Virus genome (UHGV): UHGV-0282798
DNA: 45,006 nt
From: a virus
Strand: one strand, 5' to 3'
How positions within the stretch are numbered: position 1 is the first letter of the stretch; the number at the start of each line of letters is the position of its first letter. This document shows positions 3,903-41,617 of this stretch, piece by piece. The notes under the pieces are model-generated. The model saw only the letters and a list, made by a program, of their open reading frames with translations, searched no databases and was not told the DNA's origin. Both the position numbers and the translations under genes were made by a program.

Positions 3903-4439
3903 TCATTTAACGGCTCTCCCAATAGCCTCAGCCTCTTGCCACGGTTTACCGTCGAACAGCGCCAGACGCCCGGCTGCACGGCGACGCAGGCCGAGTAATG
4001 GTTTGCCGTTCTGGTTGATGAACAGCGCCAGCTTGGCACGCAGTGTTGCAATATCACCTGAGCGCAGCGCCTTACCCGTGCCAGTAGTAGCCGCAATCAC
4101 ACCAGCACCCGCGTTGTAGACCAGGTCACACACAGCGTCGAACTGCGCCTGTGTCAGTGAATGGTGCGCCACCGAATCCACCGCAGCTACGGCCTTAGCC
4201 ATATCGCGATTAAGTAACAGGAGGCCTTGTCCCGGTGTGATGGTCTTGCCTGGAGTCACGTCCGGCCCGTAGTGGCCGTAGCCAATAGTAAGGTACTTCT
4301 CATTCGGCGTAGCACGATACGCAGTTCCGCGGAATCCCTCGAACGCAGCACAGAAATGCAATCCATTATCTGAAATATTTCGAGACACGCTTATGTCCTC
4401 CGTATGACAGCCACGCCTGACGAATCTGGCGCAGCGCAA
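3903..4439 (-). CDS. Endolysin, phage lysozyme (GH24) family
   Basis: EGFRGTAYRATPNEKYLTIGYGH and LTQAQFDAVCDLVYNAGAG match T4-lysozyme-type motifs. Likely true start is GTG at 4386-4388 preceded by GGAGG (ACGGAGGACATAAGC GTG), giving about 162 aa. Confidence 0.8.
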   Translation of the reverse strand: MRCARFVRRGCHTEDISVSRNISDNGLHFCAAFEGFRGTAYRATPNEKYLTIGYGHYGPDVTPGKTITPGQGLLLLNRDMAKAVAAVDSVAHHSLTQAQFDAVCDLVYNAGAGVIAATTGTGKALRSGDIATLRAKLALFINQNGKPLLGLRRRAAGRLALFDGKPWQEAEAIGRAVK

Positions 4440-8726: not shown

Positions 8727-8899
8727 GAGAATAGTTACGTTGCCGTTGTGATTCTTTCGTTTCTTAAAAGAGTACGCAACGCAGGGGGTGGGCATTAGCC
8801 CACCCCAGCGGAGTGAAGTACTCTCTACCTTGCTCACGGCAACTATAGAAACTTTTAATTATCAGTGACTTGGGTATTTAGGCGGGATTAACAATAGAC

Positions 8900-9000
8900 T
8901 ATGGCCCTTCCGAATGCGGGCAGCGACACTACACTCAGTGCTAACGCACCGCTCCGTTCTCCTGCCGCACCGCGGTCGCTTGTTCATACTTCACAAGCTC
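8900..9000 (-). ncRNA. Conserved structured 5-prime leader RNA or small RNA (putative), copy 1
   Basis: About 100 nt downstream of the repeat promoter are conserved between copies with compensatory changes in two hairpins; the only ORF through it is not conserved in copy 2. Confidence 0.35.
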
Positions 9001-9006
9001 AGGTGG

Positions 9007-9035
9007 AGCTTAGCATATTTTTAGTGAAAAGTCAA
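9007..9035 (-). promoter_or_regulatory. Sigma70 promoter inside repeat copy 1 (minus strand): TTGACT-17-TGcTAAGCT
   Basis: Reverse complement: -35 TTGACT (9030-9035), 17-bp spacer, extended -10 TGC TAAGCT (9007-9015); identical in copy 2. Confidence 0.5.
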
Positions 9036-9083: not shown

Positions 9084-9112
9084 TTGAAGTACCATTATCT
9101 TAGGTACTTCAA
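9084..9112. promoter_or_regulatory. Perfect 10-bp inverted repeat (TTGAAGTACC / GGTACTTCAA)
   Basis: 9084-9093 and 9103-9112 with a 9-nt loop, about 20 bp upstream of the ATG of the first plus-strand replication-block gene. Confidence 0.4.
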
Positions 9113-9130: not shown

Positions 9131-9274
9131 ATGAAGATTTGCCAGATGTGTAGGAAAGAAAAAGAAGAAGGTGCATTCCTTAAACGTTATGACAGAAAAG
9201 GAACGCGTAGTTATTGCCGTGAATGTTTCAATGCATACCGCAAACAATTAAGAGAGGCTAAGAAGAATGCATAA
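9131..9274 (+). CDS. Small Zn-ribbon protein (47 aa)
   Basis: Own translation MKICQMCRKEKEEGAFLKRYDRKGTRSYCRECFNAYRKQLREAKKNA (CxxC ... CxxC); GAGGGG RBS; below ORF-track cutoff. Confidence 0.4.
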   Translation: MKICQMCRKEKEEGAFLKRYDRKGTRSYCRECFNAYRKQLREAKKNA

Positions 9275-21533: not shown

Positions 21534-21538
21534 AGAAA

Positions 21539-21568
21539 AGGCCCCAAACGGGGCCTTAGTTTTAGATA
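21539..21568. terminator. Bidirectional terminator hairpin between convergent blocks
   Basis: Stem AGGCCCC (21539-21545) / GGGGCCT (21550-21556), loop aaac, then TAGTTTTA; near-identical to the hairpin at 34422-34441. Confidence 0.6.
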
Positions 21569-31257: not shown

Positions 31258-31507
31258 ATATTCCGTCTAAGCCCATGATAACCTCGGCTTCGAACAAACT
31301 TATGCCGTAACCGGCGACATCACGAAACGCTACCAAATCTTGCCATTTGAGCGCATCGCGCGGGATTATAACGATAGTATCATCTGTTTCGCGCTGTAGG
31401 AATTTAATGGCACGGTATTTCTCGAACACGTCGATAAGAGAAACGGGGCATTCTGGCCCCGTCGCTTCTTTCATCTGCGGTTCTTTAATCACACCCATTG
31501 CGATCAA
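31235..31507 (-). CDS. Tail assembly protein (gpT-position ORF)
   Basis: 90 aa between chaperone and tape measure; track start is TTG; its frame is -1 relative to 31597-32013 but is closed by a stop at 31544-31546. Confidence 0.35.
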   Translation of the reverse strand: MIAMGVIKEPQMKEATGPECPVSLIDVFEKYRAIKFLQRETDDTIVIIPRDALKWQDLVAFRDVAGYGISLFEAEVIMGLDGIFEGREDG

Positions 31508-34421: not shown

Positions 34422-34448
34422 AAGGCCCCGAAAGGGGCCTTAGTTTTA
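34422..34448. terminator. Terminator hairpin closing the plus-strand island
   Basis: Stem AAGGCCCC (34422-34429) / GGGGCCTT (34434-34441), loop gaaa, then AGTTTTA; sits between the island and the convergent major tail gene. Confidence 0.6.
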
Positions 34449-41279: not shown

Positions 41280-41397
41280 GTTTCCCCTTTCTCGATAAGT
41301 AAAGCCCCGCCTTAAAGCGGGGCGCTAGTCCTTATCATTTAAACATAGAAACGGCGTAATCTCAGTAAACCAGTTACTCTTTACACAAGCAAAAGAG

Positions 41398-41532
41398 TAT
41401 GGCCCTTCCGAACGCGTCAGCGTAACTACACTCAGGACTTACGTCCCGCTCCGTTACCTGCCCGCGCCGCGGTCGCTCGTTCATACTTCACAAGCTCAGG
41501 TGGAGCTTATCATATTTTTAGTGAAAAGTCAA
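41398..41532. repeat. Repeat copy 2 of the ~135-bp promoter-plus-leader element
   Basis: Aligns with 8900-9035; lies between the terminator at 41591-41617 and the Rz start at 41279. Confidence 0.85.
41504..41532 (-). promoter_or_regulatory. Sigma70 promoter inside repeat copy 2 (minus strand): TTGACT-17-TGaTAAGCT
   Basis: Reverse complement: -35 41527-41532, -10 41504-41509 with upstream TG. Confidence 0.5.
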
Positions 41533-41590
41533 CTATTCGAATAGTTTATTCCAACATTTACAATTGATTGGAATAACTGGAATAATTACG

Positions 41591-41617
41591 AGCCATAAAA
41601 AGCCCCTTTCGGGGCTT
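41591..41617 (-). terminator. Intrinsic terminator (mainly minus strand)
   Basis: Stem AAGCCCC (41600-41606) / GGGGCTT (41611-41617), loop tttc; on the minus strand it is followed by UUUUAUGG. Confidence 0.55.

Follow-up and report, generated by a model that had tools for sequence, protein, structure and literature searches.

The window considered here (UHGV-0282798, 45,006 nucleotides, the whole stretch of DNA that was analysed) is a Kagunavirus (Guernseyvirinae) genome which carries two minus-strand cassettes, at 9035-8892 (copy 1) and 41532-41390 (copy 2), each made up of a sigma-70 promoter and a leader RNA of about 110 nucleotides (nt). Using the annotated relatives LotteLoewe_Bas71 and FSL SP-101 and the PHROG matches of the window proteins, gene order was assigned for two minus-strand operons. 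Operon 1 holds many small early genes followed by holin, endolysin, terminase, portal, head morphogenesis and a Hoc-like decoration protein; operon 2, the structural operon of about 20 kb, encodes an Rz-like spanin, scaffold, the major head protein, tail genes and the tailspike. The replication genes lie on the plus strand. Copy 1 stands at the head of the early/lysis/packaging operon, with the first early gene after it at 8672-8475, and copy 2 at the head of the structural operon, where it is followed by the spanin gene (41279-40893). A BLAST search of the leader region against GenBank phages gave matches in 181-231 records, all of them Guernseyvirinae siphophages, with Escherichia, Salmonella, Raoultella, Shigella and Klebsiella named as hosts; the nearest GenBank relative is Escherichia phage vB_EcoS_GZMU_E2010, at 96-99% identity.

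The block common to the two loci is about 140 nt long (9037-8892 and 41534-41390) and about 88% identical, and alignment shows the sequences on both sides of it to be unrelated between the loci. Each copy begins with a predicted near-consensus promoter of the strong extended -10 sigma-70 type, TTGACT and TGnTAAGCT with a spacing of 17 bp between the hexamers, and continues into a leader with a characteristic architecture: a short hairpin (P1), a GA linker, an interrupted hairpin of about 66 nt (P2) and a conserved single-stranded tail of 18 nt. P1 is formed by GCUUGU, a 9-nt loop and ACAAGC. The lower parts of P2 are CCG/CGG, GGNGC/GCNUU with a tandem G.U, and CAGG-N-AAC/GUU-N-C-G-CUG with a bulged G; above them comes the internal loop GGAG/AGUGUA, and the apical stem is closed by a loop of 4 nt, so that about 17 bp lie below the asymmetric internal loop and 6 bp above it. 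P1, linker and P2 together span about 92 nt, in two stem-loops of very unequal size, and the tail has the consensus AAGGGCCAUA(G/C)UCUAUUG. Both copies show this architecture in their minimum-energy folds, as do all but one of the seven divergent homologues that were folded; the exception is L003, whose minimum-energy fold lacks P1. The parts of the two cassettes are as follows.

9030-9035, minus strand: -35 hexamer TTGACT of copy 1 (pattern search and homologue conservation)
9007-9015, minus strand: extended -10 of copy 1, TGCTAAGCT (pattern; predicted start at about 9000-8999, G9000)
8978-8998, minus strand: P1 of copy 1, GCUUGU, loop GAAGUAUGA, ACAAGC (minimum-energy fold; 100% paired in 36 distinct homologues)
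8910-8975, minus strand: P2 of copy 1, CCG/CGG, GGUGC/GCAUU (tandem G.U), CAGG..AAC/GU.UC.GCUG, internal loop GGAG/AGUGUA (folds and covariation)
8936-8951, minus strand: apical stem-loop of copy 1 P2 (folds and covariation)
8892-8909, minus strand: tail of copy 1, AAGGGCCAUAGUCUAUUG (conserved between copies and across homologues)
41527-41532, minus strand: -35 hexamer TTGACT of copy 2 (pattern search)
41504-41512, minus strand: extended -10 of copy 2, TGATAAGCT (pattern; predicted start at about 41497, G41497)
41475-41495, minus strand: P1 of copy 2, GCUUGU/ACGAGC with a U.G pair (folds and copy comparison)
41408-41472, minus strand: P2 of copy 2 (folds and covariation)
41433-41448, minus strand: apical stem-loop of copy 2, CGGGAC-GUAA-GUCCUG (folds and covariation)
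41390-41407, minus strand: tail of copy 2, AAGGGCCAUACUCUUUUG (conserved between copies and across homologues)
41531-41546, no strand assigned: perfect 16-bp palindrome with halves AACTATTC and GAATAGTT, overlapping the first bases of the copy 2 -35 hexamer and having no counterpart at copy 1

A structured, promoter-proximal leader RNA in two copies had been proposed by an earlier, sequence-only reading of the window, and the folds, the covariation and the presence of a promoter at both loci bear this out. That reading compared the apical hairpins on the minus strand, where GUGC/GCAC in copy 1 (gtgctaacgcac on the plus strand, 8938-8949) becomes GGAC/GUCC in copy 2 (ggacttacgtcc, 41435-41446); both sequences, as well as gcttgt...acaagc at 8978-8998 and gctcgt...acaagc at 41475-41495, lie where it had placed them, and the apical change is made up of two doubly compensated pairs. 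Two further compensated pairs are found in P2, a U-A that becomes C-G (in P2b) and an A-U that becomes U-A (in P2c). In all, the copies differ by 14 substitutions and three insertions or deletions over 111 aligned columns. Eight of these substitutions make up the four doubly compensated pairs, one turns the U-A pair of P1 into the wobble U.G, one converts an A/G mismatch to A-U and the remaining four fall in unpaired positions; none breaks a pair.

The comparison was extended to homologues from IMG/VR and metagenomes, found by pattern scans and confirmed with an nhmmer profile and a covariance model (89 instances, 40 distinct sequences). In a structure-blind MAFFT alignment of 16 distinct homologues, 97.6% of pair cells hold standard pairs, as against 32-41% when the partners are slid by one to three columns; four pairs change on both sides, and none of 500 shuffles reaches the observed covariation score. 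A covariance-model alignment of 36 distinct homologues gives 97.5% standard pair cells and ten two-sided pair changes, as against zero to two in slid controls, though the structure-blind figure is the safer one because the model-guided alignment leans towards the structure. The check that the sequence-only reading had suggested, folding combined with covariation among homologues, thus yields a common fold with two-sided changes above the slid controls. The apical stem occurs as GUGC/GCAC, GGAC/GUCC, GGGC/GCCC, CACG/CGUG and GUGCC/GGCAC, and its loop as GUUA, GUCA, GUAA, GUUAA, AUUA, AUCA, UCUCGA and UGUAG; one P2b pair is found as C-G, U-A or A-U and one P2c pair as U-A, A-U or G-C. Variation in P1 is limited to the change from U-A to U.G and, in the L007 and L062 types, to an extra G-C pair with a shorter loop. 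The sequences of the internal loops are conserved beyond the needs of pairing. In some early-locus leaders, those of group D/E (L034, L036 and related sequences), the middle of P2 is in a shifted register, and they were not forced into the consensus; MAFFT misaligns the central part of these leaders.

The transcribed strand is the minus strand, as had been argued from the single P1 wobble (a U.G on that strand and a C.A on the other), because the conserved G.U pairs can pair on that strand alone: of 464 cells, 453 pair as minus-strand RNA (97.6%) and 409 as plus-strand RNA (88.1%), with 45 G.U cells becoming A.C on the plus strand. The structured RNA, its transcribed strand and its fusion to the promoter are well supported. 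Some other possible features of the leader were also considered. A pseudoknot between UAUG in the P1 loop and CAUA in the tail is 92% compatible, but it shows no two-sided change and shuffles equal the observed value, so it is unsupported. A search for a pairing partner of the tail gave no supported candidate. CsrA-type GGA motifs were likewise set aside, since leaders of the group D/E and L007 types have lost the first GGA.

The pattern TTGACT-N14-TGnTAAGCT has exactly two matches in the window and none in 100 shuffled versions. The TTGACT hexamer is kept in all homologues, and so is the spacing from promoter to leader. A simple promoter scan missed both promoters because TAAGCT matches the -10 consensus at just three of six positions. 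Both transcription starts are predicted from spacing (7-8 nt past the -10 hexamer) and would lie about 2-3 nt ahead of P1. The invariant non-consensus TAAGCT forms, with the first transcribed bases, an inverted repeat AAGCTC-N5-GAGCTT that runs from -10 to +6 (9012-8996 and 41509-41493, minus strand); in L034-type leaders it reads AAGCTCAG-C-CTGAGCTT. Two separate constraints may have produced it by coincidence, or it may itself be an operator or a hairpin.

The 16-bp palindrome at the copy 2 promoter is conserved as CTATTCGAATAGTTGACT at all copy-2 loci. A 9-bp inverted repeat, TTATTCCAA/TTGGAATAA, lies just upstream, within 41546-41576; palindrome and repeat are kept at every structural-operon locus, and the early copy has neither. 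They look like operators through which a DNA-binding protein would regulate the structural promoter, and since copy 1 has no such palindrome the two promoters are probably regulated differently in spite of their common leader. On the copy 1 side, a perfect 10-bp inverted repeat (TTGAAGTACC/GGTACTTCAA, 9084-9112) lies just upstream of an open reading frame (ORF) of 47 amino acids (aa) on the plus strand (9131-9274), which diverges from the copy 1 promoter and encodes a CxxC...CxxC zinc ribbon. This ORF, for which only a weak PHROG match was obtained, to part of an HNH endonuclease family, may encode an autoregulated small regulator.

Each leader is followed, at a distance of about 70-120 nt and before the first gene, by a terminator-like hairpin, and further hairpins of this kind are found within both operons.

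8766-8839, minus strand: long terminator-like hairpin after copy 1, closed by AGAGUAC/GUACUCU and followed by UUUU (fold of -36.9 kcal/mol; includes the 8785-8806 core)
41295-41323, minus strand: terminator-like hairpin after copy 2, GCCCCGC-UUUAAG-GCGGGGC with UUUACUUAU (stem-loop 41323-41304; terminator scan)
41591-41617, minus strand: intrinsic terminator ending the Hoc-like gene, located ahead of the copy 2 promoter, where transcription of the copy 2 leader does not pass
38932-38911, minus strand: terminator-like hairpin after the major head gene, structural operon
34441-34422, minus strand: terminator-like hairpin, structural operon
31463-31442, minus strand: terminator-like hairpin, structural operon
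28928-28913, minus strand: terminator-like hairpin after the tape-measure gene, structural operon
7492-7471, minus strand: terminator-like hairpin, early operon

Of the two hairpins that the sequence-only reading had expected to be read through, the one at 8785-8806 does lie downstream of the copy 1 leader, as the core of the larger 8766-8839 hairpin, but that at 41591-41617 was misassigned, since it is upstream of the copy 2 promoter; the hairpin downstream of copy 2 is 41323-41304. A hairpin of the 8766-8839 type, or another, follows most copy-1-type leaders. All copy-2 loci examined have the copy 2 hairpin, of which a compensated variant, GCCCUGC/GCAGGGC, also occurs. The U-tracts of the hairpins that follow the leaders are weak or interrupted. 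No strong promoters were found between the intra-operon hairpins. GC-rich hairpins with T-runs on both sides, at 34422-34441, 31442-31463 and 21538-21557, have the look of bidirectional terminators and stand where the structural genes meet a block of genes that is inserted among the tail genes in the opposite orientation.

Alike as the leaders are, the hairpins and spacers that come after them show no sequence relationship between the loci, which speaks against a classical attenuator with alternative pairing and for a mode of action independent of the particular terminator; an attenuator in which the tail pairs with the terminator was rejected on the same observation. Within the otherwise unrelated spacers, a common short block, ACUGA...GUUUCUAU, is found on the minus strand at 8840-8860 and 41345-41365, at a similar distance from the leader. 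In L034 (about 4350-4400), and also in L035, L046 and L048, the early-locus leader is followed by a (CTCA)n repeat of about three to seven copies, ahead of a hairpin GGUGCCUUCGGCACC with a U-rich tail; this C-rich and unstructured stretch resembles a Rho-loading site.

A covariance model of the leader finds exactly two matches in the window, while Bas71 and the Jerseyvirus FSL SP-101 have one copy each, ahead of the spanin gene, together with a different early promoter and leader. In GenBank, 181 records carry the element, at 224 places. All Guernseyvirinae genomes searched in full have the structural-operon copy, while just a subset of Kagunavirus has the early-operon copy, with identities of 93-99% and 78-98%, respectively. 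When the structural locus of E. coli, Salmonella and Raoultella phages is compared with the window, the leader is 94-98% identical and the spacer with its hairpin 95-99%, as against 84-91% for the Hoc-like gene and 68-83% for the spanin gene, so that this leader is more conserved than the genes that flank it. An apical stem of the early type (GUGC/GCAC) is found at the spanin locus in L037 (2219-2328), L062 (582-688) and L358 (4975-5081). These leaders show that the two cassettes have recombined or undergone gene conversion, with breakpoints that fall within the leader, and such swapping of leader types between the loci implies that one function serves both operons.

Outside these phages, none of 5,426 complete E. 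coli genomes carries the element. A scan of 185,579 species genomes gave 90 pattern matches, which is the chance expectation, one of them genuine: a Kagunavirus-type leader at 2135-2245 of L203, a 6.2-kb contig in a genome assembled from a metagenome (JAEWLW010000073.1, 'Bacillota bacterium'), which is probably a phage contig mis-binned into a Bacillota genome bin. A loose pattern scan of viral contigs likewise gave about as many matches as expected by chance. In two phages that lack the early leader, a conserved GC-rich, terminator-like hairpin remains at the early locus, GGGCAGG...CCTGCCC + UUUAGUU (Bas71, L052, 36095-36115; FSL SP-101, L380, 35363-35383), and the same conserved 5' untranslated region (UTR) of the first early gene follows it (L052 35870-36120; L380 35090-35390). 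The layout of promoter, leader, hairpin and genes persists where the early leader has been replaced.

No Rfam 15 family reaches its gathering score anywhere in the window, and matches at E<=10 around both loci are at chance level only. Full-text literature searches gave nothing on the sequence of the element, on antitermination in Kagunavirus, Jerseyvirus or Guernseyvirinae, or on transcript mapping in these phages; one genome paper lists predicted promoters only, and a Kagunavirus RNA-seq paper (PMC12645636) does not have transcript-boundary resolution. The leader is thus a new RNA family, undescribed in the literature searched. Whatever its function, it is a well-supported family present in at least 180 sequenced phage genomes, and several GenBank records mis-annotate it as a hypothetical protein gene.

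The interpretation that fits these observations best, and which we put forward tentatively, is that the leader is a put-like cis-acting RNA for processive antitermination. The strong sigma-70 promoter would start minus-strand transcription about 2 nt before the conserved RNA, which would fold co-transcriptionally into P1, GA linker and P2, followed by the 18-nt tail. Like HK022 put, the folded leader would then act in cis on its own transcribing RNA polymerase and protect elongation against pausing and against termination, whether intrinsic or Rho-dependent, so that the polymerase could pass the adjacent downstream hairpin and the intra-operon hairpins without a dedicated phage protein. A cis-acting, polymerase-modifying RNA is suggested by the fusion to the promoter, the two-hairpin shape and the sequence-invariant internal loops, by its indifference to the identity of the downstream hairpin and its interchangeability between early and structural operons, and by the long operons with their many hairpins and the absence of any protein recognisable as Q or N. 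When 30 small proteins were compared with Pfam and PHROG, the latter for the best 25 of 58 families, none was assigned to a Q- or N-type antiterminator family.

Several points weigh against such a function. The starts, the termination and the read-through are predictions at both loci. Covariance models show no resemblance to put in sequence or structure, whichever of the two elements is used as the query. The U-tract of the copy 2 hairpin (UUUACUUAU) is weak, and this hairpin may not terminate efficiently. A strong conserved terminator closes the early/packaging operon just upstream of copy 2, and it would be of little use if the copy 1 leader conferred full resistance to terminators. Many Guernseyvirinae have no such leader at their early promoter, though the GC-rich hairpin there is kept. 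Folding-energy z-scores of the window copies are unexceptional (-1.2 and -2.0), so that the case for RNA structure rests on covariation and not on stability. P1 never covaries among the 36 distinct homologues and is therefore backed by conservation and folding instead; what keeps it invariant could also be a signal in the DNA or the binding of a protein.

A bolder form of the interpretation, which we regard as doubtful, is that the leader represents a second family of RNA-only processive antiterminators, structurally unrelated to put, which drives unmodified host RNA polymerase through the multiple terminators of the roughly 20-kb structural operon of the Guernseyvirinae with no Q- or N-like protein, and which is a portable cassette, duplicated in some lineages so that a copy also heads the early operon. 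In the literature reached here, no phage RNA other than HK022 put is known to confer terminator resistance on E. coli RNA polymerase unaided. If the proposal is true, RNA-only control of elongation is a recurrent solution, with an independent put-like RNA in abundant, therapeutically used virulent coliphages and in Salmonella phages; there would also be a second structure for probing how a nascent RNA locks the polymerase in a processive state, and a compact promoter-leader part for synthetic operons.

Four rival explanations have to be set beside put-like antitermination, and we rank them in the order protein-binding leader, stability or processing element, trans-acting small RNA, and coding sequence or DNA site. 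It is possible, if on balance improbable, that the leader is a platform for a phage early protein or host factor, comparable to a nut site or an RNA operator, with binding at P1 or at the internal loop of P2 controlling termination, translation or timing of both operons. P1 and the internal loops are near-invariant while the apical stem and loop are free to vary, a pattern typical of sequence-specific recognition; most of the early proteins are without known function, and the operator-like palindrome at the copy 2 promoter implies that phage-encoded regulators act at that locus. A host target such as RNA polymerase would account for the invariance equally well, however, and the element is conserved across phages with differing early gene sets, Jerseyvirus included; moreover, there is no boxA-like sequence near the leaders and no N, Q or other antiterminator family was recognised. 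An element for messenger RNA stability or processing, in which P1 would shield the 5' end from decay and P2 would be cleaved in the manner of RNase III sites to give a stable 5' end, seems unlikely. The position of P1, some 2-3 nt from the predicted 5' end, would suit it, as would the form of P2, with about 17 bp, an asymmetric internal loop and a 6-bp upper stem, and the high conservation of the entire copy 2 5' UTR. A stabiliser needs structure, though, and not near-invariant sequences in loop and linker, and the fixed fusion to one promoter and the conserved single-stranded tail are left unexplained.

The sequence-only reading had offered a trans-acting small RNA as its alternative, and this too is less favoured. 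Each cassette would then encode an RNA of about 200 nt ending at the post-leader hairpin and directed at targets in the host or the phage, with transcription of the downstream genes as incidental read-through; the strong promoter of its own, the hairpin about 70-120 nt downstream and the 95-99% conservation of the copy 2 spacer and hairpin all agree with this. It is nevertheless quite improbable. From the upstream terminator to the spanin gene, no second promoter was found that could serve the structural operon; neither hairpin is followed by a strong, uninterrupted U-tract; with no relation between the spacer and hairpin of one locus and those of the other, the two small RNAs would have the leader alone in common; and absence of the element from the E. 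coli genomes leaves no host small RNA for it to mimic. Finally, the block might be conserved as a protein-binding DNA site or a small-protein gene instead of as RNA, which we consider extremely unlikely. An ATG in the P1 loop opens a frame of 36-45 codons that gene callers annotate, for example as Bas71_0007 (L052 5282-5392), but the ATG is missing in the L007 and L062 types, insertions and deletions shift the frame between copies, and the stem substitutions are compensatory and not synonymous. Because the frame is not conserved, the hypothetical-protein coding sequence within the leader is probably an annotation artefact. A leader peptide was rejected on similar grounds: the P1-loop ATG and a UUG in the tail, after the Shine-Dalgarno-like GGAAGGG, open frames of 1-45 codons with no conservation of length, frame or presence. 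As to a DNA site, the inverted repeat AAGCTC-N5-GAGCTT formed by the -10 hexamer and the first transcribed bases would fit one. The dyads of the leader are a different matter, for their arms pair over up to 60 nt and include G.U pairs possible on one strand only, which is incompatible with a DNA operator; the sequence-only reading had named such protein-binding dyads as the outcome that would count against it, and the compensatory changes speak against them as well.

Among known systems, the RNase III sites of T7 resemble P2 in having a long hairpin with an asymmetric internal loop between lower and upper stem, conserved in a phage polycistronic transcript, though the T7 sites are intergenic and not fused to promoters. 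The nut sites of lambda and rrn are likewise hairpin-bearing leader RNAs, proposed to modify the transcribing polymerase; the boxB loop of nut is conserved and GNRA-like, whereas the apical loops here are variable, and the six window matches to boxA (GCUCUUUAACAA or CGCUCUUA, up to two mismatches; 4.6 expected by chance) include none near either leader. The arrangement at copy 2 is also like that of lambda PR', 6S RNA and tR', with a strong sigma-70 promoter, a terminator-like hairpin within about 200 nt and a lysis/structural operon of about 20 kb. Lambdoid Q-dependent late promoters have a conserved -10-like element that induces pausing early in the transcribed region, and most leaders carry a -10-like AAGTAT at about +10 to +15. 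Q and its DNA binding element are required in lambda, however, whereas here the RNA structure itself is under selection, and in the L062 and L007 types AAGTAT becomes AGTTAT or AGATAT, without the critical A at position 2. A sigma-dependent pause hexamer was accordingly rejected as an explanation, since it is not kept in all leader types.

The closest comparison is with putL and putR of HK022, which the sequence-only reading had also drawn. HK022 put acts alone, through the zinc-binding domain of the RNA polymerase beta' subunit, and mutations in this domain of rpoC block it. In both systems a promoter-proximal transcribed element is present in two related copies per genome that differ by compensatory changes; it consists of two adjacent stem-loops with a 1-2 nt linker and conserved bulges and internal loops, and it stands at the head of long operons containing terminators, with no cognate antiterminator protein recognised in the genome. 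The order of promoter, two-hairpin leader and terminator-like hairpins at the head of long operons is thus consistent with the analogy; put acts in cis, while for the leader this is what we infer. The analogy does not extend to homology in either direction: the leader covariance model has no match at E<=1 in the HK022 putL/putR loci, and a put covariance model matches neither leader in the window at E<=10. Short common words (GCGGCG, CAGG, AACGG) lie in different structural contexts and were treated as chance. The leader is not a member of the put family, which is itself known from a small set (the alignment of Hwang et al., 2022, PMC9378689, has ten sequences). At about 92 nt, the leader combines a short P1 with a very long P2, whereas put has two stems of about 35 nt (about 70 nt in total); put is found in lambdoid prophages, where it heads early operons, whereas the leader belongs to virulent Guernseyvirinae siphophages and its universal copy heads the structural (late) operon. 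It is nevertheless of a known general kind, a promoter-proximal cis-acting phage leader.

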